IMG/VR virus record: IMGVR_UViG_2734482585_000006
DNA: 10,096 nt
Reading direction: 5' to 3' (one strand)
Source of the DNA: a virus
Lineage: Duplodnaviria; Heunggongvirae; Uroviricota; Caudoviricetes
Shown here: positions 108 to 10,096 of the stretch, piece after piece
Position numbering within the stretch: the first letter of the stretch is position 1
Layout: the number at the start of each line of letters is the position of its first letter
Program-made: the position numbers and the translations under genes
Notes under the pieces: model-generated
Told to the model about the DNA's origin: nothing
Database searches by the model: none
What the model saw: the letters and a program-made list of their open reading frames with translations, nothing else

Positions 108-306
108 TCCATCACCGAAAAAAATTGGCTTTTACACCATTGGCGATAAAAGCATTTACCTGTATGACCTACGCCGCATGGATGAAATCATGGAGGCTCT
201 TGATAATCGTTCGTCGATGGATTGGTGTGTTGCTGTTCATGATATGAATGCAGGGTTTGATGAAAAGATTTTGTTCCCCTCATCAGTTGAAAGCACTGCG
301 GGTTAA
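76..306 (+). CDS. Hypothetical protein; start uncertain, frame is open back to position 1
   Basis: 76-aa ORF ending TAA 304-306, immediately followed by a strong RBS for the next gene. The ATG at 76 lies inside the terminal inverted repeat and the same frame has no stop back to position 1, so this may be the 3' part of a longer gene or a chimeric frame created at the repeat junction. Confidence 0.3.
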   Translation: MVVSAIASTPHPSPKKIGFYTIGDKSIYLYDLRRMDEIMEALDNRSSMDWCVAVHDMNAGFDEKILFPSSVESTAG

Positions 307-316
307 GGAGTAACAC

Positions 317-484
317 ATGACCACTATTACCAAAGAACGTATTGAATTGTTCATTAAAAACCCGCTTGAAAACGGGCTTACCCGTGGTGAACAAATGGAA
401 CTGGCACGGATTGCGCTGGCATCGCTGGAAGCAGAGCCGGTTGTGTTCTGGTTTGAAAAATATCAAGAAGGGGCTACGGCATGA
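317..484 (+). CDS. Hypothetical small phage protein (55 aa)
   Basis: ATG at 317 preceded by consensus SD AAGGAG (305-310) at 6-nt spacing; stop TGA 482-484 overlaps the ATG of the next ORF (ATGA). Not in the ORF track (below length cut-off). Contains the motif [10 protein letters not shown], shared with the next ORF. Confidence 0.5.
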
Positions 485-825
485 CGACTTTTACCAGAGA
501 GCAGTTAATAGCTCACGCAGAGGAGACTATTGAAGCACAGAGACTGTGCATACCGGGCACAATCGACCATGACATCATCCGCACATATAAGATGGATATT
601 GCTGTTCTGGAAATCGCACTGGTATCGCTGGCAGCAGAGCCAGCCGGTAAATTGCATGAATACAAACCAGTGGGATATCAGCGTCTGGTCGATGAGTTAA
701 CCATGCTGGTAAAGCAGTTAACCTGGCAACTGAGGAAAGCGAAGCCAGACTGCAAATTACCGGATAAGGCGATGAGTTATCTGGAGCGGAACGGACTGAT
801 AAGCGTGGAGGATATTTTACGATGA
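481..825 (+). CDS. Hypothetical phage protein (114 aa)
   Basis: ORF coupled to the upstream gene (ATGA overlap at 481-484) and to a downstream mini-ORF (ATGA at 822-825). N-terminus MTTFTREQL resembles the N-terminus of ORF 6009-6251 (MTFTPEQL); internal motif [10 protein letters not shown] echoes the 55-aa ORF. Confidence 0.55.
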
Positions 826-905
826 CCTGGCCTGAAGCATTAACAACGGTAGGAATTGCGATGGCGGTGGCGCTGGTGGTGTATTCGATTTGCCGCTGGG
901 GATAA
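822..905 (+). CDS. Possible small hydrophobic peptide (27 aa)
   Basis: ATG 822 overlaps the stop of the upstream gene; translation [27 protein letters not shown] has a single hydrophobic stretch. Short, so a chance ORF is possible. Confidence 0.3.
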
Positions 906-1116
906 AAACGGTTTGCGGGAAAAGGAGAGTTAAGTAGAATTGCAGCGGGTGCTTGAGGCTATCTGTCTCAGGCATGAACACCAAAAGGCAGATAGAGAAA
1001 AGCCCCAGTTAACATTACGCGTCCGGCAAGACGCTTAACATTAATCTGAGGCTCAATCTATGAACGGCAAATCTAGGTTAGCCTCTTACGTGCCGAAAGG
1101 CAAGGAGAAGCAGGCT

Positions 1117-1272
1117 ATGAAGCAGCAAAAGGCGATGTTAATCGCCCTGATCGTCATCTGTTTAACCGTCATAGTGACGGCACTGGTAACGAGGAAAGAC
1201 CTCTGCGAGGTACGAATTCGAACCGGCCAGACGGAGGTCGCTGTCTTCACAGCTTACGAACCTGAGGAGTAA
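1117..1272 (+). CDS. hok: Hok/Gef family type I toxin (small membrane-depolarising peptide)
   Basis: Translation MKQQKAMLIALIVICLTVIVTALVTRKDLCEVRIRTGQTEVAVFTAYEPEE has the Hok-family pattern (N-terminal TM helix, two conserved Cys, EVA-x-F-x-AYE tail) and closely resembles chromosomal HokD/RelF as I recall it. AGGAG at 1103-1107 precedes the ATG. An in-frame upstream ATG at 1060 would give a 70-aa form. Confidence 0.85.
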   Translation: MKQQKAMLIALIVICLTVIVTALVTRKDLCEVRIRTGQTEVAVFTAYEPEE

Positions 1273-1340
1273 GAGACCAGGCGGGGGAGAAATCCCTCGC
1301 CACCTCTGATGGGGCAGGCATCCTCAATGCACCCACACTT

Positions 1341-1368
1341 AACCCGCTTCGGCGGGTTTTTGTTTTTA
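1341..1368 (+). terminator. Rho-independent terminator downstream of hok
   Basis: Stem cccgc (1343-1347) / gcggg (1352-1356) with ttcg loop, followed by tttttgttttt. Confidence 0.6.
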
Positions 1369-1492
1369 TTTTCAACGCGTTTGAAGTTTTAGATGGTGCC
1401 GGAATAGAATCAAAAATACTTAAGTAGCGCGCAGGGAGAAGAGGGATGGACCCCGAACAGGGGAGTGCTATTTATCTGGAAGGATTCTGTTG

Positions 1493-1774
1493 ATGAAAAT
1501 CGAAGAATTACGTGAAATTTTTAGTGAAGATGGCCTCTATACTGTGCGCGTTGAGAATGGCGCTATTGTCAGCCACTGCCTTCCAGACTACACAATTCTG
1601 ATAATTCAGCCGTCTTTGCCAGCAGGCACGGGCGGCGCTCTCACGCATTTAAATCTGATTGGTACCAGCATCCCCCATGCACTGAAGAACAGGCCGAATG
1701 GCTCATTCAGTGTTACCGCAGGCGCGGATGCGAGGTTAAAAAAGCCCTTAGCCTCGACTACCGTCACTGGATAA
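1493..1774 (+). CDS. Hypothetical protein (93 aa); sits where rem lies in the K-12 Qin prophage, by recalled gene order only
   Basis: ATG at 1493 with GGAAGGA about 8 nt upstream (the track starts at TTG 1490). No recognisable motif. Confidence 0.4.
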   Translation: MKIEELREIFSEDGLYTVRVENGAIVSHCLPDYTILIIQPSLPAGTGGALTHLNLIGTSIPHALKNRPNGSFSVTAGADARLKKPLASTTVTG

Positions 1775-1849
1775 TCTCCGTCAGGCTCCCTTACTCCGAA
1801 CGGCCAACGCGTCCGTCCCGCACATTCCAGCAACGGATCTGGAGGTAAT

Positions 1850-2908
1850 GTGCGGGTATTACTTCGACCTGTTCTGGTACCGGAACTCGGTCTGGTTATC
1901 GTTAAGCCAGGCCGTGAATCAATGTCAGCATTCCATAACGGCAGAATACTGGTGGAGCCGGAACCAAAAAGCATGCGTAATCTGCCGTCCGGGGTCGTTC
2001 CTGCCGCTCGCCAGCCGCTGGTGGAAGACAAAACATTGCTGCCGTTTTTCAGTAACGCACGGGTGATTCGTGCTGCTGGTGGTGCTGGTGCATTGTCTGA
2101 CTGGCTGTTGCGCCATATTAAATCCTGCCAGTGGCCACACGGCGATTATCATCACAGCGAAACCGTCATTCACCGTTATGGTACCGGCGCAATGGTGTTG
2201 TGCTGGCACTGCGACAACCAGCTGCGTGACCAGACATCCGAATCACTCGAGCAACTTGCTCATCAAAACCTGTCAGCATGGATGATTGACGTCATCGGTC
2301 ACGCAATAAGCGGTACGCAGGAGCGTGAATTATCTCTGGCTGAATTATCCTGGTGGGCGGTCCGCAATCAGGTGGCGGACGCGCTACCGGAAGCGGTATT
2401 ACGTCGTTCGCTGGGGTTGCGTGCGGAAAAAATTCGCTCTGTGTACAGTGAAAGCGACATCATACCGGGAGAGCAGACAGCCACCAGCATACTGAAGCAG
2501 CGCACAAAAAATATTGCGTTACTGCCTCACGTCCACCAGCAACAGAACCCACCACAGGAAAAGACGGTGGTCAGCATTGCCGTTGATCCGGAGTCACCGG
2601 CTCAGTATCTCCAGCGCCAGAAATCACAACGGGAAGAGATGCCTGTATACACGCGCTGGGTAAAAACGCAGAAATGCATGACGTGTGGCAATCAGGCAGA
2701 TGATCCGCATCACATCATTGGTCATGGACTGGGAGGGATGGGAACAAAGGCTGATGATTTGTTTGTTATTCCGTTATGCCGTAAATGCCGTAACGAACTA
2801 CATGCCGGAGTAAAAGATTTTGAAGAGAAACACGGCAGTCAGCTGTTGTTGCTGATTCGTTTTTTAATGCACGCGAGAAATTCGGGTGTTCTGAAGTGGA
2901 AAGCATAA
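1850..2908 (+). CDS. DUF968-like prophage protein (YdfU-like) with C-terminal HNH/zinc-finger-like Cys-His motif
   Basis: 352-aa ORF; GTG 1850 is 4 nt after GGAGG (1841-1845); alternative ATG at 1922. C-terminal CMTCGNQADDPHHIIGH...CRKCRNELH is a CxxC...HH...CxxC...H pattern. Stop TAA 2906-2908 abuts the rusA ATG at 2909. Family call is from memory. Confidence 0.7.
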   Translation: MRVLLRPVLVPELGLVIVKPGRESMSAFHNGRILVEPEPKSMRNLPSGVVPAARQPLVEDKTLLPFFSNARVIRAAGGAGALSDWLLRHIKSCQWPHGDYHHSETVIHRYGTGAMVLCWHCDNQLRDQTSESLEQLAHQNLSAWMIDVIGHAISGTQERELSLAELSWWAVRNQVADALPEAVLRRSLGLRAEKIRSVYSESDIIPGEQTATSILKQRTKNIALLPHVHQQQNPPQEKTVVSIAVDPESPAQYLQRQKSQREEMPVYTRWVKTQKCMTCGNQADDPHHIIGHGLGGMGTKADDLFVIPLCRKCRNELHAGVKDFEEKHGSQLLLLIRFLMHARNSGVLKWKA

Positions 2909-3289
2909 ATGACCGAGCGCATAGAATTTGTTTTACCTTACCCGCCGACGGTGAACACTTACTGGCGTCGTCGTGGCAGCACATATTTTGTATCAAAAGC
3001 CGGGGAGCGTTATCGCCGGGCAGTGGCGCTTATTGTTCGCCAGCAGCGGCTGAAATTAAGCCTGTCCGGAAGGTTGGCAATAAAAATTATTGCAGAACCA
3101 CCGGATAAGCGCCGCCGTGACCTGGACAATATTCTGAAAGCGCCGCTGGATGCGCTGACGCATGCGGGGTTGCTAATGGACGATGAGCAGTTTGATGAAA
3201 TCAATATCGTTCGTGCTCAGCCAGTATCTGGTGGACGTCTGGGGGTGAAGATTTATCCCATAATGCTTGAAGGGCAGGTCAAAAAATGA
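2909..3289 (+). CDS. rusA: Crossover junction endodeoxyribonuclease RusA (Holliday junction resolvase), copy 1
   Basis: 126-aa protein with RusA-family motifs (YPPTVNTYW, PDKRRRDLDN, GGRL); stop overlaps the Q start (ATGA at 3286-3289). Confidence 0.9.
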   Translation: MTERIEFVLPYPPTVNTYWRRRGSTYFVSKAGERYRRAVALIVRQQRLKLSLSGRLAIKIIAEPPDKRRRDLDNILKAPLDALTHAGLLMDDEQFDEINIVRAQPVSGGRLGVKIYPIMLEGQVKK

Positions 3290-3976
3290 AACTGGAAGAT
3301 TTACCGAAATACTACTCCCCAAAATCCCCCGGCCTGACTGATGCATCGGCCTCAACGTCGAAAGATGCGCTGAGTATCACTGATGTGATGGCCGCGCAGG
3401 GCATGACACAGAATCGGGCTGAGATGGGGGTTTCTGCGTTCCTTGGGAAAATGGGCATTAGTATGAATGACAGAGAGCGGGCAACAGAATTGCTGACAGA
3501 ATATGCACTCAGTCGGTGTGATCGCGTGGCGGCGTTAAGAAAACTCCCGGCAGAAATAAAACCGGCAGTGATGCGTATTATGGCTTCGTATGCGTTTGAA
3601 GATTATGCCCGTAGCGCGGCGAGCAAAAAACAGTGCNNNNNNNNNNNNNNNNNNNNNNNNNNNNNNNNNNNNNNNNNNNNNNNNNNNNNNNNNNNNNNNN
3701 NNNNNNNNNNNNNNNNNNNNNNNNNNNNNNNNNNNNNNNNNNNNNNNNNNNNNNNNNNNNNNNNNNNNNNNNNNNNNNNNNNNNNNNNNNNNNNNNNNNN
3801 NNNNNNNNNNNNNNNNNNNNNNNNNNNNNNNNNNNNNNNNNNNNNNNNNNNNNNNNNNNNNNNNNNNNNNNNNNNNNNNNNNNNNNNNNNNNNNNNNNNN
3901 NNNNNNNNNNNNNNNNNNNNNNNNNNNNNNNNNNNNNNNNNNNNNNNNNNNNNNNNNNNNNNNNNNNNNNNNNNNN
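3286..3976 (+). CDS. Late-gene antitermination protein Q, copy 1 (3' part N-masked; true stop unknown)
   Basis: The first 117 aa before the mask are about 95% identical to the full-length copy at 6622-7476. Sequence after the mask (3977 onward) matches the sequence just downstream of the copy-2 stop, so the stop is probably inside the mask. The mask is 340 nt where copy 2 has about 507 nt, so the two copies differ in length. Confidence 0.7.
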
Positions 3977-4012
3977 TGGGCGTTTTATGCCTGACGTTAG
4001 AAGAGTTTCTAC

Positions 4013-4037
4013 AACCCGCCGCCGAGCGGGTTTTTTA
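4013..4037 (+). terminator. tR'-like Rho-independent terminator downstream of Q copy 1
   Basis: cccgc (4015-4019) / gcggg (4026-4030) stem followed by tttttt (4031-4036); same sequence as the terminator after Q copy 2. Confidence 0.65.
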
Positions 4038-4156
4038 TGACTGAAATCGCGTCAGTACAGTAAACGCGCTGGTGGCGGTGAATACCTGTCTTTCAGCTTG
4101 CTGGCTTTTTCGACAAGAGTTATTGGTGTGTCACGTTAACCGGAAAAGGAAAAGAC

Positions 4157-4354
4157 ATGCTAAAACAGCAGGATATGACAGAAACCGCCAGAGTGGTGTT
4201 TAATGAATTAAGCGTTACCGAACCGGCGACAGTCGGGGAGATAGCGCAGAATACTTACCTTTCACGCGAACGCTGCCAGTTAATACTGACCCAGCTGGTT
4301 ATGGCGGGTCTGGCAGACTATCAGTTCGGTTGTTACAGACGCCTTCCGCAGTGA
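4157..4354 (+). CDS. Small winged-helix DNA-binding protein, PapI/FaeA-like (65 aa)
   Basis: AAGGA (4146-4150) 6 nt before the ATG. The segment ATVGEIAQNTYLSRERCQLILTQLVMAGL resembles the recognition-helix region of PapI/FaeA-family regulators (compare PapI [28 protein letters not shown], from memory). The stop lies inside a terminator hairpin. Confidence 0.5.
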   Translation: MLKQQDMTETARVVFNELSVTEPATVGEIAQNTYLSRERCQLILTQLVMAGLADYQFGCYRRLPQ

Positions 4355-4366
4355 AGGCTTTTTTAT
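4341..4366 (+). terminator. Rho-independent terminator after the small winged-helix gene
   Basis: Perfect 6-bp stem gccttc (4341-4346) / gaaggc (4353-4358) followed by ttttttat. Confidence 0.6.
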
Positions 4367-4381
4367 TTGTGGTAAATGGGC

Positions 4382-4412
4382 GGCTGGTGGGTGTTAGGGG
4401 CACCCACCAGCC
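4382..4412. repeat. Perfect 12-bp-stem hairpin / palindrome
   Basis: ggctggtgggtg (4382-4393), 7-nt loop, cacccaccagcc (4401-4412); no U-tract follows, so not an obvious terminator. Lies about 90 nt upstream of the methyltransferase gene. Confidence 0.5.
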
Positions 4413-4504
4413 ATCTGCTCATGCGTTGGGTTCACAAGCAAACCTCAGGCCCACTGCTTTGCGCAAAAGCAGAATGAGCCTATCAGAGACAGGCTTAATG
4501 ATCC

Positions 4505-5563
4505 ATGCTTAATACTGTAAAAATATCCAGTTGTGAGTTAATCAACGCCGACTGCCTGGAATTTATCCGGTCGTTACCCGAAAATTCTGTTGACCTGATA
4601 GTCACGGACCCGCCGTACTTTAAAGTGAAGCCTGAGGGCTGGGATAACCAGTGGAAGGGCGACGATGATTACCTGAAGTGGCTGGACCAGTGTCTGGCGC
4701 AGTTCTGGCGGGTGCTGAAACCTGCCGGAAGTCTTTACCTGTTCTGTGGTCATCGCCTGGCATCTGATATCGAAATCATGATGCGTGAACGCTTCAGTGT
4801 GCTGAACCATATTATCTGGGCGAAGCCGTCCGGACGCTGGAACGGATGCAACAAGGAAAGCCTGCGGGCGTATTTCCCCGCCACAGAGCGCATTCTGTTC
4901 GCGGAACATTATCAGGGGCCGTATCGTCCGAAAGATGCCGGGTATGCGGCGAAGGGCAGTGCACTGAAACAGCATGTGATGGCCCCGCTGATTTCTTACT
5001 TTCGTGATGCGCGAGCTGCCCTGGGGATAACGGCAAAACAGATTGCAGATGCCACAGGAAAGAAAAACATGGTGTCGCACTGGTTCAGTGCCGGTCAGTG
5101 GCAGTTGCCGAATGAAAGCGATTATCTGAAATTACAGGCGCTGTTTGCCCGGGTGGCAGAAGAGAAGCATCGGCGTGGTGAACTGGAAAAGCTCCACCAC
5201 CAGCTGGTGGATACGTATACCTCACTGAACCGGCAGTATGCGGAGCTGCTGAGTGAATATAAACATCTGCGGCGGTATTTTGGCGTGACGGTGCAGGTGC
5301 CGTATACCGATGTGTGGACGCATAAACCGGTGCAGTTCTATCCCGGGAAACATCCGTGCGAAAAACCGGCAGAAATGCTGCAGCAGATAATCAGCGCTAG
5401 CAGTCGTCCGGGTGACCTGATTGCAGATTTTTTCATGGGGTTGGGTTCGACAGTGAAAGCGGCACTGGCGCTCGGGCGTCGTGCAATTGGCGTTGAGCTG
5501 GAGACTGAACGTTTTGAGCAGACGGTTCGGGAAGTACAGGATTTAGTCAGCCAGAACGGATGA
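4505..5563 (+). CDS. Orphan DNA N6-adenine methyltransferase (beta-class, motif IV before motif I)
   Basis: 352-aa ORF with catalytic DPPY early (LIVTDPPYF) and the AdoMet-binding FxGxG near the C-terminus (DFFMGLGST); this order defines beta-class amino-MTases. No restriction endonuclease partner is visible. Weak RBS. Confidence 0.85.
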   Translation: MLNTVKISSCELINADCLEFIRSLPENSVDLIVTDPPYFKVKPEGWDNQWKGDDDYLKWLDQCLAQFWRVLKPAGSLYLFCGHRLASDIEIMMRERFSVLNHIIWAKPSGRWNGCNKESLRAYFPATERILFAEHYQGPYRPKDAGYAAKGSALKQHVMAPLISYFRDARAALGITAKQIADATGKKNMVSHWFSAGQWQLPNESDYLKLQALFARVAEEKHRRGELEKLHHQLVDTYTSLNRQYAELLSEYKHLRRYFGVTVQVPYTDVWTHKPVQFYPGKHPCEKPAEMLQQIISASSRPGDLIADFFMGLGSTVKAALALGRRAIGVELETERFEQTVREVQDLVSQNG

Positions 5564-5603
5564 TATTGAAGAATTAATTACGCGTCGTTATTATGCGGCT
5601 CCC

Positions 5604-5679
5604 GGCCCTTTAGCTCAGTGGTGAGAGCGAGCGACTCATAATCGCCAGGTCGCTGGTTCAAATCCAGCAAGGGCCACCA
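5604..5679 (+). tRNA. tRNA with CAU anticodon (ileZ-like tRNA-Ile2 or tRNA-Met), copy 1
   Basis: Hand-folded cloverleaf: acceptor ggccctt/aagggcc, D-arm gctc/gagc, anticodon loop cuCAUaa, T-loop ttcaaat, discriminator A, CCA encoded. The phage context suggests ileZ as in Stx phages. Confidence 0.85.
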
Positions 5680-5686
5680 TCACATA

Positions 5687-5724
5687 CCGCCATTAGCTCA
5701 TCAGGAAAGAGCGCCAGCCTTCGA
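5687..5724 (+). tRNA. 5' part of a second tRNA (anticodon loop cuUCGa, possible tRNA-Arg), truncated by the N mask
   Basis: ccgccat acceptor strand, U8, D-arm gctc/gagc, anticodon stem ccagc, loop cttcga, then N. The 3' half cannot be seen. Confidence 0.35.
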
Positions 5725-6008
5725 NNNNNNNNNNNNNNNNNNNNNNNNNNNNNNNNNNNNNNNNNNNNNNNNNNNNNNNNNNNNNNNNNNNNNNNNNNNN
5801 NNNNNNNNNNNNNNNNNNNNNNNNNNNNNNNNNNNNNNNNNNNNNNNNNNNNNNNNNNNNNNNNNNNNNNNNNNNNNNNNNNNNNNNNNNNNNNNNNNNN
5901 NNNNNNNNNNNNNNNNNNNNNNNNNNNNNNNNNNNNNNNNNNNNNNNNNNNNNNNNNNNNNNNNNNNNNNNNNNNNNNNNNNNNNNNNNNNNNNTGAACA
6001 ACCAGACA

Positions 6009-6251
6009 ATGACTTTTACCCCTGAACAATTGCGTAAACACGCGCAGGAAATGCTGCGTCATGCTGAACAACTCGAAAAAACGGGCATAACAAAAGACGC
6101 TATCCGTAAAGATATGGTACCCGCGCTTCGGGAACTGATGCAGGCGAAGCATCGCGCACAGAAAGCAGTAGATGAGCTGGTGGACTGTGTGGCAGAGCTG
6201 GAAACCAGAGTCGGAAAGTTTGAAAAACTGGTGCAGGAGGTGCTGCGCTGA
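6009..6251 (+). CDS. Hypothetical small helical protein (80 aa)
   Basis: ORF MTFTPEQLRKHAQEMLRHAEQLEK...; stop TGA 6249-6251 overlaps the rusA copy-2 ATG by one base (TGATG). No SD, and the frame is open upstream into the N mask. N-terminus is paralogous to ORF 481-825. Confidence 0.5.
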   Translation: MTFTPEQLRKHAQEMLRHAEQLEKTGITKDAIRKDMVPALRELMQAKHRAQKAVDELVDCVAELETRVGKFEKLVQEVLR

Positions 6252-6625
6252 TGCGCCATGAGTTTATTTTACCTTATCCGCCGACGGTGAATACTTACTG
6301 GCGACGTCGTGACAACACATATTTTGTATCAAAAGCCGGTGAGCGTTATCGCCGGGATGTGGCGCTTATTGTCCGTCAGCAGCGACTGAAATTAAGCCTG
6401 TCCGGAAGACTGGCGATAAAGATTATTGCAGAGCCACCGGATAAGCGCCGTCGTGACCTGGACAATATCCTGAAAGCACCACTGGATGCACTGACACATG
6501 CGGGAGTGTTAATGGACGATGAGCAGTTTGATGAAATCAATATCGTTCGTGGTCAGCCAGTATCTGGTGGACGTCTGGGGGTGAAGATTTACCCCATAAT
6601 GCATGAAGAGCAGGTCAAAAAATGA
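6251..6625 (+). CDS. rusA: Crossover junction endodeoxyribonuclease RusA, copy 2
   Basis: 124-aa protein about 93% identical to copy 1 with the same RusA motifs; ATGA overlap with Q copy 2 at 6622-6625. Confidence 0.9.
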   Translation: MRHEFILPYPPTVNTYWRRRDNTYFVSKAGERYRRDVALIVRQQRLKLSLSGRLAIKIIAEPPDKRRRDLDNILKAPLDALTHAGVLMDDEQFDEINIVRGQPVSGGRLGVKIYPIMHEEQVKK

Positions 6626-7476
6626 AACTGGAAGATTTACCGAAATACTACTCCCCAAAATCCCCTTGCCTGACCGATGCATCGGCCTCAACGTCAAAAG
6701 ATGCGCTGAGTATCACTGATGTGATGGCCGCGCAGGGCATGACACAGAATCGGGCTGAGATGGGGTTTTCTGCGTTCCTGGGGAAAATGGGCATCAGTAT
6801 GAATGACAGGGCGCGGGCAACAGAATTACTGGCAGATTATGCACTCAGTCGGTGCGATCGTGTGGCGGCGTTGAGAAAACTTCCGGCAGAAATAAAACCG
6901 GTAGTGATGCGCATTATGGCTTCGTACGCTTTTGAGGATTATGCCCGCAGCGCAGCGAGTAAAAAGCAGTGCCCTTGTTGCTATGGGGAAAAATTTATTG
7001 AAAGCGTAGTTTTTACAAACAAGGTCCAGTATCCGGATGGTAAGCCGCCGGTATGGGCAAAGTGTACGAAAGGTGTGTATCCGTCTTACTGGGAAGAATG
7101 GAAAAAAGTCAGGGAGGTGGTAAAAGTTGCCTGTCCGGAGTGTGGCGGAAAGGGTGAGGTTTCCACCGCCTGTAAGGATTGCCGTGGGCGTGGTGTCGCC
7201 ATTCATCGTGAAGAGTCGGTAAAACGTGGTATGCCTGTTATCAGAGACTGCCAGCGTTGTGGTGGTCGTGGCTATGAAAGACTACCATCAACGGAGGCAT
7301 TTAATGCTATATGCGAGGTGACAAACCAGATAACACGCGCGTCATGGGAAAAAACAGTTAAGAAATTCTATGATGCGCTGGTGACTCGGTTTGATATTGA
7401 AGAAGCATGGGCTGAGCGGCAGTTAAAAAAGGTAACTAGGTTGATTTTTCCGGAATCTGTGGTAAATTCGTCATAA
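6622..7476 (+). CDS. Late-gene antitermination protein Q, copy 2 (full length, 284 aa)
   Basis: Position immediately after rusA and before a promoter-proximal terminator and tRNAs is the canonical Q slot in lambdoid phages. Carries CPCC plus three CxxCxGxG motifs (CPECGGKG, CKDCRGRG, CQRCGGRG). Family assignment is by position and recollection, not a search. Confidence 0.75.
   Translation: MKLEDLPKYYSPKSPCLTDASASTSKDALSITDVMAAQGMTQNRAEMGFSAFLGKMGISMNDRARATELLADYALSRCDRVAALRKLPAEIKPVVMRIMASYAFEDYARSAASKKQCPCCYGEKFIESVVFTNKVQYPDGKPPVWAKCTKGVYPSYWEEWKKVREVVKVACPECGGKGEVSTACKDCRGRGVAIHREESVKRGMPVIRDCQRCGGRGYERLPSTEAFNAICEVTNQITRASWEKTVKKFYDALVTRFDIEEAWAERQLKKVTRLIFPESVVNSS
7441..7468 (+). promoter_or_regulatory. 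Candidate late promoter (pR'-like) at the 3' end of Q
   Basis: TTGATT (7441-7446), 16-nt spacer, TAAATT (7463-7468); a start near 7475 would give a roughly 60-nt transcript ending at the terminator at 7516-7540, analogous to lambda 6S RNA and the qut region. Match by eye only. Confidence 0.3.
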
Positions 7477-7515
7477 CTATGGGCGTTTTATGCCTGACGT
7501 TAGAAGAGTTTCTAC

Positions 7516-7540
7516 AACCCGCCGCCGAGCGGGTTTTTTA
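7516..7540 (+). terminator. tR'-like Rho-independent terminator downstream of Q copy 2
   Basis: cccgc (7518-7522) / gcggg (7529-7533) stem followed by tttttt (7534-7539). Confidence 0.65.
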
Positions 7541-7578
7541 TTGCGGAATTAATTACGGACCGTTATTATTCTGCTCCC

Positions 7579-7654
7579 GGCCCTTTAGCTCAGTGGTGAG
7601 AGCGAGCGACTCATAATCGCCAGGTCGCTGGTTCAAATCCAGCAAGGGCCACCA
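7579..7654 (+). tRNA. tRNA with CAU anticodon (ileZ-like tRNA-Ile2 or tRNA-Met), copy 2
   Basis: Identical 76-nt sequence to 5604-5679. Confidence 0.85.
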
Positions 7655-7661
7655 TCACAAA

Positions 7662-7741
7662 CCGCCATTAGCTTATCAGGAAGAGCAGACGACACGATAA
7701 CAGGGTTGTTGGTGCGGGGGCGGGTCCCCGATGGCGGTCCA
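7662..7741 (+). pseudogene. Degenerate tRNA-like element (possible decayed second tRNA)
   Basis: Perfect 7-bp acceptor pairing ccgccat (7662-7668) / atggcgg (7730-7736), discriminator T, CCA, and a D-arm (gctt/gagc), but no canonical anticodon arm and a G-rich non-canonical T-loop. Its 5' part matches the partial tRNA at 5687-5724 and then diverges. Confidence 0.3.
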
Positions 7742-7754
7742 TTATCGGTATTCA

Positions 7755-7831
7755 GCGTTGTTAGCTCAGCCGGACAGAGCAATTGCCTTCTAAGCAATCG
7801 GTCACTGGTTCGAATCCAGTACAGCGCGCCA
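7755..7831 (+). tRNA. tRNA-Arg (anticodon UCU, reads AGA)
   Basis: Hand-folded cloverleaf: acceptor gcgttgt/acagcgc (one G-U), D-arm gctc/gagc, anticodon stem attgc/gcaat with loop cuUCUaa, T-arm actgg-ttcgaat-ccagt, CCA encoded. Likely argN/argO-type phage tRNA. Confidence 0.85.
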
Positions 7832-7941
7832 TATTCATTCTTCCAGATTCCTTCCGGCAGAGCCTTATACTGAAATATACCTGGCTCAGGATATTGTTGA
7901 AAATATTTTATGTTTGTCAAAAATAAAAGTTCTGTTAAGTA

Positions 7942-8295
7942 TTGATTGAGTGTTTGTTATACGGTCTAATGGTTTTTTCAGCATTAAATATTTATCATTC
8001 ATATGGTGTGGGTAGAGTGAATATTGATGAGGCGTCGGGGTGTTTCATCCTTAGGCAGCGTATTGATATAGTCAATGCAGCACGAGCAAAGGCCTTCAGC
8101 CGTTTGACAGTTTTGTTCTGTACTCCTGATCGTCTTTCGGGAAGAGACGTTATTATTCTGAATAGTGATGCTATACAGAGGGTTTGCGATGAGTTCATGG
8201 TTGCTAATTCAGAATTATTTGCTCTTGTTCAGGAGTACAACAGAATAGCCAGGACCTGTGGTATGGATGAACTTCGGATTACTCATCTGGGGTAG
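7942..8295 (+). CDS. Hypothetical cargo protein (117 aa from ATG 7942; alternative starts ATG 7969, GTG 8017)
   Basis: Longest ORF in the AT-rich block downstream of the tRNAs. No family recognised, and not Stx A or B. The 5' end overlaps promoter-like AT-rich sequence, so the true start may be internal. Confidence 0.35.
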   Translation: MIECLLYGLMVFSALNIYHSYGVGRVNIDEASGCFILRQRIDIVNAARAKAFSRLTVLFCTPDRLSGRDVIILNSDAIQRVCDEFMVANSELFALVQEYNRIARTCGMDELRITHLG

Positions 8296-8476
8296 ATACA
8301 TATCTGGATTATCACCTGTTACGGTAAAAAGTGATTGCTTACTGTTTTTGTGAATGGCATTGCAGCAGCCGGATAATGTCAGTGCTGGCTGACGGTGTGC
8401 TGGTGGCGGGTGTGGTGGTTGTTGCTTTCCCGTTGCTGAAAAAGAAAACGCCAGACTGTTAGCCGGGTATCAGTTA

Positions 8477-8789
8477 NNNNNNNNNNNNNNNNNNNNNNNN
8501 NNNNNNNNNNNNNNNNNNNNNNNNNNNNNNNNNNNNNNNNNNNNNNNNNNNNNNNNNNNNNNNNNNNNNNNNNNNNNNNNNNNNNNNNNNNNNNNNNNNN
8601 NNNNNNNNNNNNNNNNNNNNNNNNNNNNNNNNNNNNNNNNNNNNNNNNNNNNNNNNNNNNNNNNNNNNNNNNNNNNNNNNNNNNNNNNNNNNNNNNNNNN
8701 NNNNNNNNNNNNNNNNNNNNNNNNNNNNNNNNNNNNNNNNNNNNNNCTGTTGTCTGGTTTGCGGGGAGTTTGTTAAAAGAAACTGGCAT
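8477..8789 (-). CDS. Minus-strand cargo gene, N-terminus only (MPVSFNKLPANQTT...); remainder N-masked
   Basis: ATG at 8789-8787 on the minus strand with AGGGGG 7 nt upstream; the ORF runs into the mask, so its length and end are unknown. The track extension to 8379 depends on the frame through the N run and is not trusted. Confidence 0.3.
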
Positions 8790-8996
8790 GGTGAATCCCC
8801 CTGTGCGGAGGGGCAATCAGCGAGTAGGTATATGGGATAATCGCGGATTCAGGTGCTGGTACTGAATTCACCGGGAGGCACCCGGCATCATGCAATGGCA
8901 CATAGCGCCACTCTCCAGCCCTCTCCGGAGGGGCTTTTCTGTGCCGGATACATCACAGTTTCTGGAACCTTAGGTACTACAGTATCAGTCAGGGTG

Positions 8997-9620
8997 CTAT
9001 ATTTTCAGATGTGATGAAAGCCTGTCAGCAGGCAGGGCGTATCGGAAATGACCCAGTAGAGAAAACGTTGNNNNNNNNNNNNNNNNNNNNNNNNNNNNNN
9101 NNNNNNNNNNNNNNNNNNNNNNNNNNNNNNNNNNNNNNNNNNNNNNNNNNNNNNNNNNNNNNNNNNNNNNNNNNNNNNNNNNNNNNNNNNNNNNNNNNNN
9201 NNNNNNNNNNNNNNNNNNNNNNNNNNNNNNNNNNNNNNNNNNNNNNNNNNNNNNNNNNNNNNNNNNNNNNNNNNNNNNNNNNNNNNNNNNNNNNNNNNNN
9301 NNNNNNNNNNNNNNNNNNNNTTGCAGAGTGCAACGGTTATTAAAGCATTCATTCAATACGTTATCTGTATTTGTAGGGCATTCCTGGCTATTTTTGATTG
9401 AATTCCAGAATGTTTTATTGAATGGTACTACGTTGTAAATGGTTACAGGTAGCACTTTGTTATTGAGCATGATGCCTGTGTGAGTCAGTGTAAATATACT
9501 TTCAGGAGGTAAGAAAGCATCCGATTGATACCAGATTATTAATTTTATTTTACTCCATATGACTGAAAAAGATATTCCGCATGATGGCTGGATAACTGTA
9601 TCAATCACAATCCACTTCAT
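8997..9620 (-). CDS. Minus-strand AT-rich cargo gene (first 100 aa visible: [34 protein letters not shown]...), middle N-masked, end uncertain
   Basis: ATG at 9620 (minus) with AAGGA at 6-nt spacing; 100 codons are open before the mask. The mask is 250 nt (not a multiple of 3), so the stop at 8997 is not established. No family recognised. Confidence 0.45.
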
Positions 9621-9880
9621 TTAGTTTCCTTGTTTATGCCTTGCTGGTGATGTTCTGAAAAGTATAAATGATATTTTTGAATGTAAACCATAGAGCAGAA
9701 TTATTTTTCTGATGTTGTTTATTGTTTATTTAAATGCAGGGTGGTTTATATCTCGTCTTGTAGTTTATCCATGCATATCTGCTTGATAATCAGGTTTTTA
9801 TTTAAGGTATGGTTTTGTGTTTTTTCTGTATTACATGTCAGGTATTTTAAAGAATTATTTTTCAGATGGTGGAAAGAACC

Positions 9881-10054
9881 ATGGCATTTAAACACTATGA
9901 TGTTGTCAGGGCGGCGCCGCCGTCAGATCTTGCGGAAAAGCTGACACATAAACTGAAAGAGGGCTGGCAGCCGTTTGGTAGTCCGGTGGCCATAACCCCT
10001 TATACCCTGAGGTGTACTGGCAATAGCGGACACTACCATTTGTTCTTTTTTTAA
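9881..10054 (+). CDS. Small conserved-looking phage protein (57 aa, MAFKHYDVVRAAPPSDLAEKLTHKLKEGWQPFGSPVAITPYTLRCTGNSGHYHLFFF)
   Basis: ATG 9881 has a purine-rich stretch (GGTGGAAAG) just upstream; the track start 9866 has none. Diverges from the minus-strand cargo gene across an AT-rich intergenic region. The last 47 nt of the CDS and the 42 nt after it form the right arm of the terminal inverted repeat. Confidence 0.5.
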   Translation: MAFKHYDVVRAAPPSDLAEKLTHKLKEGWQPFGSPVAITPYTLRCTGNSGHYHLFFF

Positions 10055-10096
10055 GCAGCCATCTGATGATATTTTTCCCTGAAGGCTGCCGGGGAG
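10008..10096. repeat. Right arm of perfect 89-bp terminal inverted repeat (partner 19-107)
   Basis: Exact reverse complement of 19-107; runs to the last base of the window. Confidence 0.9.

Follow-up and report, generated by a model that had tools for sequence, protein, structure and literature searches.

Relation to described hok loci

Members of the hok/sok family have been described on plasmids, with hok/sok (parB) of R1, on the E. coli K-12 chromosome outside any prophage, with hokC (gef)/mokC/sokC, and in lambdoid prophages, where hokW-sokW of the Stx2 phage 933W and of Sakai prophage 5 (Sp5) is an experimentally working toxin-antitoxin pair (Takada et al. 2021, PMC8621323). An enrichment of hok genes in prophages has been reported (bioRxiv 10.1101/2025.08.07.668861). 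The window, i.e. the whole stretch of DNA analysed here (10,096 nt, IMG/VR record IMGVR_UViG_2734482585_000006), very probably harbors between positions 905 and 1368, to judge from its sequence, a type I toxin-antitoxin module with hok, mok and sok all complete, which belongs to the hokW/hokD type of prophages and chromosomes. This type is ordinary, already known and well studied; earlier work has documented the hok/sok family as a whole, its members in prophages (hokW-sokW) and the in-frame position of mok at chromosomal and prophage loci, and the locus is of little discovery value. The present analysis is based on sequence identity, family membership, element positions and predicted pairings, while transcription, RNA processing, toxicity and the action of Sok are deduced from published work on hokW-sokW and on hok/sok of R1. 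Genes and RNA elements are on the plus strand unless stated otherwise.

The hokW/mokW/sokW locus of 933W, in which all three genes are annotated and which is likewise part of a lambdoid prophage, has the same architecture, including the in-frame mok start and the position of Sok, and is about 92% identical to positions 822 to 1344 of the window. The regulatory halves of the two loci match nearly base by base, and no difference is present in the Sok promoter, the Shine-Dalgarno sequence of hok or the first 33 hok codons. Most differences within 905 to 1344 are located in mok codons 2 to 6, at the C-terminus of Hok, where four amino acids are exchanged, and in the 3' UTR. Furthermore, 933W has another terminator and downstream gene, which in the window are K-12 Qin-like (rem), and the gene L0139 upstream instead of ORF2.

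The toxin of the K-12 Qin prophage, HokD (RelF), is identical to the Hok peptide of the window. The DNA of both loci is nearly identical from about 1104 through the 3' UTR, the terminator and rem, after which the DUF968 and Q genes follow in the same order. Upstream of about 1104, relB-relE of K-12 Qin, correctly named in the original prediction, takes the place of everything, namely the hok promoter, tac, the leader, the mok start and the Sok gene. A relBE-hokD operon is not present in the window, since relBE is missing, homology to K-12 begins only at about 1104 and a full leader is located upstream. The locus illustrates Qin hokD together with its 5' regulatory half, the part which is taken up by relBE in K-12.

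K-12 hokC/mokC/sokC also has mok in frame 57 nt upstream of hok and a Sok that overlaps the first 9 nt of mok, and it shares the Shine-Dalgarno, dcb and Sok promoter blocks with the window locus. It differs by its chromosomal location with an immediately adjoining IS186 and is only moderately similar in sequence. The plasmid-borne R1 locus contains the same set of elements at nearly equal distances from the 5' end of the mRNA (mok Shine-Dalgarno nt 102–105 in the window and 105–108 in R1, mok AUG 114 and 116, hok AUG 171 and 174). In both, tac and fbi are complementary, and the differences compensate one another (GGCGC/GCGCC at a plasmid locus resembling R1 versus GGGUGC/GCACCC in the window). 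The Hok proteins of the hokW/hokD branch are divergent from that of R1, to which HokW is 44% identical (PMC8621323).

Toxin gene and upstream in-frame start

The hok gene (1117–1272) encodes 51 amino acids and was found to be intact, as claimed originally, with its own Shine-Dalgarno sequence (AGGAG, 1103–1107) and a terminator (hairpin and T-run, 1341–1358). The peptide matches Pfam HOK_GEF (PF01848) with 81.6 bits (cut-off 22, E = 3e-23) and is identical over all 51 residues to E. coli K-12 HokD (UniRef HOKD_ECOLI), while an NCBIfam search of the toxin returned sub-threshold Hok matches only. HokD is among the previously characterised toxins that served as toxicity controls in a recent study (bioRxiv 10.1101/2025.08.07.668861).

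An in-frame ATG at 1060, which would give a product of 70 amino acids, had been noted as an oddity. The reading frame was confirmed: 70 codons (1060–1272) start 57 nt upstream of the hok ATG, are preceded by a Shine-Dalgarno sequence (GAGG, 1048–1051) and begin as in annotated mokW. The start is not an oddity, as it corresponds to the annotated mok of the same family branch, and the offset of 57 nt equals those of mokW/hokW (933W) and mokC/hokC (K-12). The original statement that canonical mok overlaps hok in a different frame holds true for R1-type plasmid loci, with offsets of 58 nt in R1 (by the coordinates in PMC9841398) and 59 nt in an R1-like plasmid, but not for mokW/hokW and mokC/hokC. 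The window locus with its in-frame mok thus does not have the R1-type arrangement.

Given the unbroken frame, the 70-residue product rather than the 51-residue Hok might be the main toxic species, with mok as an alternative start of the toxin. The in-frame arrangement is retained in mokW and mokC, and the exact 70-residue sequence is widespread, being encoded on at least 1000 contigs. Nevertheless, this interpretation is improbable: no other part of the locus varies as much as the 19-codon extension (MNGKS in the window versus MLNTC in 933W), hok has kept its own strong AGGAG Shine-Dalgarno sequence, HokW of 51 residues is toxic when expressed alone (PMC8621323), and the mok start is absent altogether from K-12 hokD.

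Promoter, leader and folding of the predicted hok mRNA

A putative hok promoter was read from the sequence at 912 to 940, comprising a -35 hexamer TTTGCG (912–917), a 17-nt spacer and a -10 hexamer TAGAAT (935–940), with G947 as the presumed transcription start. This block is conserved in relatives whose upstream DNA is unrelated. Since the hexamers of the hok and Sok promoters are weak and were missed by a consensus promoter scan of positions 250 to 1500, both promoters were placed by homology.

The covariance-model search suggested with the original prediction gave a clear match of the plus strand to the hok leader family of Rfam (RF01794) at 947 to 1122 (112.4 bits, gathering score 59, full model 1–157). 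The alignment covers the Shine-Dalgarno sequence and AUG of mok and ends on the hok AUG. The full-length mRNA is predicted to extend from 947, the start of the Rfam match, to 1366, with the terminator hairpin (1341–1358) and T-run as its end, and its minimum free energy (MFE) is -169.5 kcal/mol (z = -7.2). In the MFE structure, the tac element at the 5' end (GGGUGCUUGAGG, 947–958) pairs with the fold-back inhibitory element fbi (CCUCAAUGCACCC, 1322–1334), which is complementary to it except for one bulged U; at the bulged position, 1328, C is found in 88 of 104 relatives and T in 11. When the RNA is cut at 1320, this pairing is lost in the predicted fold and the 5' end refolds into a local hairpin.

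The inverted pair ctatctg/cagatag pointed out originally is real, occurs once in the window and was found in none of 200 shuffled sequences. Its first arm is located at 959 to 965 as given, whereas the second arm is at 989 to 995 and not at 990 to 996. In the Rfam alignment as well as in the MFE structure, its two arms make up the stem of the hairpin at the 5' end of the hok leader (959–995).

The hexamer AGCCCC at 1001 to 1006 was assigned by reading the sequence as the counterpart of the R1 ucb or anti-Shine-Dalgarno box and is the same as nt 70–75 of R1 (PMC9841398). In the published R1 full-length model, the mok Shine-Dalgarno sequence pairs with ucb, whereas its partner in the MFE structure of the window locus is 1082 to 1085. 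Owing to G1312, a position at which 91 of the 104 relatives have T, the stretch 1310 to 1315 forms a perfect 6-bp match with the ucb box in the MFE structure.

Predicted Sok antisense RNA and proposed mode of action

A Sok-like antisense RNA had been expected on the minus strand around 950 to 1120, and a candidate gene was placed there by homology. The predicted Sok RNA (998–1068, minus strand, about 71 nt), the position of which was transferred from sokW of 933W, covers the first 9 nt of mok. In its predicted fold (z = -5.5), a long hairpin is preceded by a single-stranded 5' tail and followed by a U-rich tail. The putative promoter on the minus strand (1075–1103) consists of TTGCCT (-35, 1103–1098), a 17-nt spacer and TAACCT (-10, 1080–1075). 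Its counterpart in an aligned R1-like plasmid locus is TTGCCT/TATCCT, and the whole stretch is identical in 933W. In 933W, expression of sokW is driven by a promoter of its own, and mutations in the -10 region abolish protection (PMC8621323).

Following the described systems, a weak constitutive promoter (about 912–940) would give rise to an mRNA of about 420 nt starting at G947. Its extreme 5' end (tac) would pair with the 3'-located fbi, and the full-length RNA is therefore proposed to be closed and untranslated. Slow trimming from the 3' end would strip fbi, upon which the 5' end would refold and the mok Shine-Dalgarno sequence become usable. Ribosomes starting at mok would read across the start region of hok and thereby permit synthesis of the 51-residue, presumably inner-membrane toxin Hok, the same peptide as K-12 HokD. 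As mok shares the frame of hok at this locus, initiation at mok itself is proposed to yield the N-extended Hok of 70 residues. The unstable Sok RNA (from about 1068 down to 998) would pair with the mok start region, thereby blocking translation of mok and hence of hok, and would trigger cleavage by RNase III.

Prophage context and integrity of the locus

The first 107 nt of the window are an IS600 end, matching at 100% the ends annotated for IS600 family transposases, and homology to E. coli prophages begins at 108. A perfect 89-nt inverted repeat (19–107 and 10008–10096) is located at the two ends of the window. A chimeric ORF of 76 amino acids (76–306) starts inside the IS600 end and represents a phage gene (phrog_1714) that IS600 has truncated on the 5' side, as the PHROG match covers only profile positions 21 to 87 of 87. 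The exact 76-residue protein is named as a Shigella sonnei prophage protein in the sources. Positions 108 to 10007 are a Qin-like prophage fragment between inverted IS600 copies, the host of which is probably S. sonnei. The locus illustrates that a toxin-antitoxin module may stay complete inside a prophage fragment cut by IS600.

An inactivating mutation in the hok regulatory region was sought by comparison with 104 relatives, and all defined elements proved free of disabling changes. Eight bases of the window are rare among these relatives, none of which is located in a promoter hexamer, Shine-Dalgarno sequence, start codon, tac or ucb, and all eight recur in some of the relatives.

An intact sequence is no proof of activity, since hokA, hokB and hokC of the chromosome are reported, in work cited by bioRxiv 10.1101/2025.08.07.668861, to be unable to mediate post-segregational killing and, likewise, to lack a response to rifampicin. 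The module could therefore be a physiologically silent relic in a dead prophage fragment, intact in sequence but neither killing nor stabilising, like the chromosomal hok loci of K-12. The truncation of the prophage piece by IS600 on both sides would fit this interpretation, as would the rare G1312, which strengthens the predicted pairing of ucb with the 3' region. Such a silent state is a serious possibility but rather unlikely, because no defined element carries a disabling change, the near-identical hokW-sokW is active (PMC8621323) and a peptide with exactly this Hok sequence is known to be toxic.

Upstream open reading frames

Upstream of the module, three translationally coupled ORFs of 55, 114 and 27 amino acids are located, and the ATGA stop/start overlaps at 481–484 and 822–825 noted in the original prediction were verified. 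Translational coupling is frequent among the genes of phage operons. The context had been considered unusual. This could not be upheld, as the block 108 to 1371 comprising the three ORFs and hok is found at 98–99% identity in 240 of 5,426 complete E. coli genomes and, again as one block with 98–99% identity, in phage vB_EcoS-689R5. Neither the setting nor the in-frame upstream start is unusual, since an ordinary hokW/hokD-type module is located behind three common phage accessory genes.

ORF1 (317–484, 55 amino acids), named 'Eaa protein' in the sources, consists almost wholly of an N-terminal module also present in Eaa/DUF551-type phage proteins and matches phrog_3323, phrog_60 and phrog_660 (E = 1e-19 to 4e-10). 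ORF2 (481–825, 114 amino acids), identical to hypothetical proteins of the RefSeq WP_000206826.1 type, combines the same module with a different C-terminal domain (phrog_660, E = 8e-43). The motif (I/L)A-x-SL-x-AEP, which had been recognised in two of the ORFs, is real and part of a wider N-terminal similarity of both proteins (33% identity over 54 residues, BLASTP E = 1e-5) with the pattern M-[ST]-T-[IF]-T...IAL-x-SL-x-AEP. The 11 residues bearing the motif stand at the end of ORF1. Both ORFs match the same stretch of phrog_60, phrog_660, phrog_3323 and phrog_5117, and the 185-residue DUF551 protein P0032 begins with the same module. A DUF551 domain was not detected in either ORF, with no Pfam match at E ≤ 0.1, and no NCBIfam match was obtained for any of the three ORFs. 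ORF1 and ORF2 are paralogues, and all three ORFs are accessory genes of the lambdoid early region unrelated to hok.

A single functional cassette made up of hok and the three coupled ORFs, in which ORF3 or the Eaa-like proteins would modulate Hok or operon read-through would control hok, is extremely unlikely. In favor of such a cassette, no terminator is present between the end of ORF3 (905) and the hok promoter, the homology of 933W to the window begins exactly at the ORF3 ATG, and several unrelated small hydrophobic ORFs are located just upstream of hok in other phages. However, homology of relatives to the hok module mostly begins downstream of the ORFs, the break-points clustering at 900 to 945, and the module is thus independent of them. 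Moreover, the 400 nt that follow ORF3 contain no hok 5' end in 36 of 107 copies, hok loci of plasmids and of K-12 work without such ORFs, and the families of ORF1 and ORF2 are mosaic and occur all over the early regions of lambdoid phages. Membership of ORF3 in the hok module, considered because 933W homology starts at its ATG, was rejected in view of the copies lacking a nearby hok; in those hok-less copies that were inspected, a hairpin with a T-run takes the place of hok downstream.

Several sequence classes of lambdoid phages carry a small single-helix membrane ORF directly in front of the hok promoter, ORF3 of the window being one example. A PHROG search with the other small hydrophobic ORFs upstream of hok returned no family and no link between them. 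A functional partnership of these ORFs with hok/sok going beyond mere adjacency, e.g. as modulators of Hok or in the control of read-through at induction, is very unlikely.

ORF3 (822–905), the last gene of the upstream operon, encodes a small hydrophobic single-helix protein of 27 amino acids. This small membrane-protein gene is conserved and mostly lacks annotation; no annotation was present at its position in the two RefSeq genomes examined. Its DNA is found in about a quarter of the complete E. coli genomes. The DUF551 gene is often just the upstream neighbor of ORF3, overlapping it by ATGA. The 27-residue peptide clustered with a 185-residue DUF551 protein, which is treated as an artefact of very short sequences, and derivation of ORF3 from a broken-off DUF551 C-terminus was rejected, as the cluster-representative protein does not contain the peptide. 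The evidence for ORF3 as a real gene under selection is a by-product of this analysis. The ORF is kept at 27 codons in 97 of 107 copies on viral contigs and the ATGA overlap in 100 of them. In codons 2 to 19, 22 synonymous and 25 nonsynonymous distinct changes were counted (27% synonymous expected, p = 0.003), compared to 13 and 34 or 6 and 41, respectively, in the other two frames.

Identity of the hok gene and comparison with known loci

The 51-aa peptide encoded at 1117–1272 (plus strand), which translation confirmed as an internal in-frame start of the ORF 1060–1272, matches Pfam HOK_GEF with 81.6 bits and is identical to K-12 HokD (UniRef HOKD_ECOLI, exact-sequence look-up). The gene has its own ribosome binding site and terminator, as had been read from the sequence: a Shine-Dalgarno AGGAG at 1103–1107 and, downstream of hok, a terminator-like hairpin followed by a T-run at 1341–1358 (both plus strand). 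The Hok Tyr47 codon UAC is followed by G (UACG, 1255–1258), i.e. the TadA editing motif is present in the window; A-to-I editing with Tyr-to-Cys recoding has been reported for hokB and, according to bioRxiv 10.1101/2025.08.07.668861, for hokC, hokD and hokE as well.

By megablast, 822–1344 is approximately 92% identical to phage 933W and Stx phages, and the 933W record carries the annotations mokW, hokW and antisense sokW at the matching region. In a three-way alignment, 933W and the window are identical over the Sok promoter, the hok Shine-Dalgarno and the first 33 hok codons, while they differ mainly in mok codons 2–6, four C-terminal Hok residues and the 3′ UTR. HokW is toxic and is neutralised by sokW transcribed from its own promoter; mutations in the sokW −10 element abolish protection, and the hokW-sokW system is partly dependent on RNase III and Hfq (Takada et al., PMC8621323). 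In the cryptic prophage Qin of K-12, identity to the window starts at approx. 1104 and takes in hok, the terminator and rem, whereas relE is found in place of the window sequence upstream of 1104. Judged from this alignment, the locus is therefore a Qin-type hokD retaining the regulatory half that is occupied by relBE in K-12. Taken together, the hok/mok/sok module is complete, of the hokW/hokD type and apparently undamaged.

hok leader with predicted antisense RNA and RNA switch

The covariance-model search for hok/Sok RNA elements returned a match to Rfam RF01794 (“sok”) at 947–1122 on the plus strand (112 bits, gathering score 59). Since the alignment takes in the Shine-Dalgarno and AUG of mok and has the hok AUG as its last position, the model here recognises the sense-strand hok mRNA leader. 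The first hairpin of this leader has the inverted pair ctatctg/cagatag as its stem. The pair is found a single time in the window and was absent from all 200 shuffles; its first arm lies at 959–965 as originally described, the second at 989–995, one base off the earlier placement. A hok promoter is inferred at 912–940 (plus strand; −35 TTTGCG 912–917, 17-nt spacer, −10 TAGAAT 935–940, start at G947), and this block is kept in relatives despite unrelated upstream DNA. Distances from the mRNA 5′ end agree with those of plasmid R1 (PMC9841398) within three nucleotides: in mRNA numbering, the mok Shine-Dalgarno lies at 102–105 (105–108 in R1), the mok AUG at 114 (116 in R1) and the hok AUG at 171 (174 in R1).

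A Sok-like antisense RNA had been expected on the minus strand around 950–1120. Homology to sokW, with coordinates transferred through the 933W alignment, places it at 998–1068 (minus strand), where it covers the first 9 nt of mok, the same overlap as between sokC and mokC in K-12. Its predicted promoter (1075–1103, minus strand) consists of TTGCCT (1103–1098), a 17-nt spacer and TAACCT (1080–1075), and the start follows after another 7 nt; in an R1-like plasmid locus, TTGCCT/TATCCT are the aligned hexamers. This promoter was not found in a consensus promoter scan and had escaped the original prediction as well, because its hexamers are weak. Sok is predicted to fold into a long hairpin flanked by an unpaired 5′ tail and a U-rich tail (z = −5.5).

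The mRNA 5′ end GGGUGCUUGAGG (947–958) is complementary, with one bulged U, to CCUCAAUGCACCC (1322–1334), and the minimum free energy fold of 947–1366 is closed by exactly this pairing (z = −7.2). In the predicted fold of an RNA cut at 1320, the 5′ end forms a local hairpin instead. The predicted pairing and its loss upon 3′ cutting correspond to the switch described for R1 (PMC9841398) between tac, the mRNA 5′ end, and fbi, the 3′ fold-back inhibitory element.

An in-frame mok

The ATG at 1060 lies in frame, 57 nt upstream of the hok ATG, and opens a 70-aa ORF (1060–1272, plus strand) sharing the hok stop codon. It had been described as giving an N-extended product, unlike canonical mok, which overlaps hok in a different frame. 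Such an out-of-frame mok does hold for plasmids: the offset is 58 nt in R1 (mok AUG 116–118, hok AUG 174–176; PMC9841398), and the mok annotated on an R1-like plasmid (as a “DUF5431” protein) begins 59 nt before the hok ATG. In 933W and in K-12 mokC/hokC, however, mok is in frame with hok, both coding sequences sharing the stop codon with starts 57 nt apart, exactly as in the window. A four-locus alignment traces the difference in frame to indels of a single base lying between the mok and hok AUGs. Given the identical offset and the occurrence of the exact 70-aa sequence on at least 1000 contigs, the ATG at 1060 is the normal mok start of this branch of the hok family.

Search for inactivating changes

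No inactivating mutation was found in the hok regulatory region when the window was aligned with 104 relatives retrieved by leader sequence. Only eight window bases are rare (carried by <15% of the relatives), and each is present in some of them. They are located between the hok −10 and the transcription start (944), in mok codon 2 (1063 and 1064), in mok codon 5, within the spacer before the Sok start (1073), at a synonymous site in hok (1218), in the 3′ UTR (1312), at the bulged base of fbi (1328) and next to fbi (1335). None of the eight falls in promoter hexamers, Shine-Dalgarnos, start codons, tac or ucb, the anti-Shine-Dalgarno box of the leader. G1312, a T in 91 of the 104 relatives, is the sole rare base whose effect could not be dismissed: in the predicted full-length fold it would render 1310–1315 (UGGGGC) perfectly complementary to the ucb box (1002–1007).

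Upstream open reading frames

The three ORFs described upstream of hok are all in the ORF list (55 aa, 317–484; 114 aa, 481–825; 27 aa, 822–905), with ATGA overlaps at 481–484 and 822–825. The motif reported as common to ORF1 and ORF2 belongs to a broader similarity of the two N-termini (33% over 54 aa, E = 1e-5), and both ORFs hit one and the same N-terminal stretch in several PHROGs whose function is unknown; in phrog_660, ORF2 hits the C-terminus as well. ORF1 carries the source name “Eaa protein”. A 185-aa DUF551 protein begins with this N-terminal module, shared motif included, while the DUF551 domain itself was absent from ORF1 and ORF2 in a Pfam search. Around the ORF1/ORF2 block, Ea22-like and similar genes are found in E. 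coli. ORF1 and ORF2 belong to the mosaic accessory genes that separate the replication genes from the nin/Q region in lambdoid prophages.

ORF3 (822–905, plus strand), a single hydrophobic helix coupled to the upstream gene by ATGA, is annotated in neither of two RefSeq genomes examined at its position. Approx. 25% of complete E. coli genomes contain its DNA (1,346 of 5,426). Among 107 viral-contig copies, the 27-codon frame is intact in 97 and the ATGA overlap is kept in 100, with varied upstream genes. Distinct changes in codons 2–19 comprise 22 synonymous and 25 nonsynonymous ones (27% synonymous expected, p = 0.003), compared to 13/34 and 6/41 in the other two frames. ORF3 thus looks like a real gene whose frame is under purifying selection, and this conserved, largely unannotated 27-aa membrane ORF is the sole residue of novelty. 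A tie to hok was rejected: the hok leader follows at a fixed distance in 57 of the 107 copies and at 230–345 nt in 14, while 36 have none within 400 nt, and hok-module homology in relatives mostly starts at 900–945, 3′ of ORF3. Copies without the leader have a hairpin and then a T-run instead (examples inspected).

As a related, loose observation, different small hydrophobic ORFs occupy this position in other hok-bearing phages. Four viral contigs (L007, L046, L023 and L047) carry distinct ones with strong Shine-Dalgarnos approx. 40–90 nt upstream of the hok leader, namely a 59-aa ORF ending in FMAVMCIEYWR, a 34-aa ORF (MSDDISLAMEGALAVIAVVGVYCLVVFLMDRLGN) and a 30-aa ORF (MVLVLKCALAIAAVMAIYCLAVVLMDRLSD); no PHROG family matched them. 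In nine viral contigs, a 228-aa ORF with several cysteine pairs is found directly upstream of hok, and between the two a C-terminal remnant of one such small ORF persists.

Prophage context

Positions 1–107 match an IS600 end, and 10008–10096 is its perfect inverted copy (89 nt, 100% complementary); E. coli prophage homology extends from 108 to approx. 10010, i.e. a prophage fragment (108–10007) is bracketed by inverted IS600 ends. Source names for exact window proteins include Shigella sonnei. The 76-aa ORF at 76–306, which sources list as a Shigella sonnei prophage protein, is chimeric because the IS has truncated the first phage gene; it aligns with its PHROG profile only from position 21 onwards. 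Downstream of hok follow rem, DUF968, RusA, Q and then tRNAs, in the same order as in K-12 Qin and in block-carrying E. coli prophages. The module is set in a degraded Qin-like prophage with unrelated phage accessory genes upstream.

While the observations of the original prediction are confirmed, its reading of the context as unusual is not upheld, and the locus is already known. Among 5,426 complete E. coli genomes, 240 carry the block 108–1371 (98–99% identity), where it is annotated as three hypothetical proteins followed by hokD; phage vB_EcoS-689R5 carries it as well. A recent survey reports a roughly four-fold enrichment of hok genes in prophages (bioRxiv 10.1101/2025.08.07.668861), which together with the block frequency makes the context ordinary.

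The window also contains an internal duplication (90–96% identity; 2917–3216/6253–6552, 3977–4045/7480–7548 and 5564–5707/7539–7682) that takes in a RusA-like gene, the terminal part of a Q-like antiterminator gene together with its terminator, and a CAT-anticodon tRNA (5604–5679 and 7579–7654). The pattern suggests that two RusA-Q-tRNA modules have been fused in tandem. Downstream of tRNA-Arg(TCT) (7755–7831), the sRNA STnc100 (Rfam RF02076) is matched at 8757–8946 with 122 bits.
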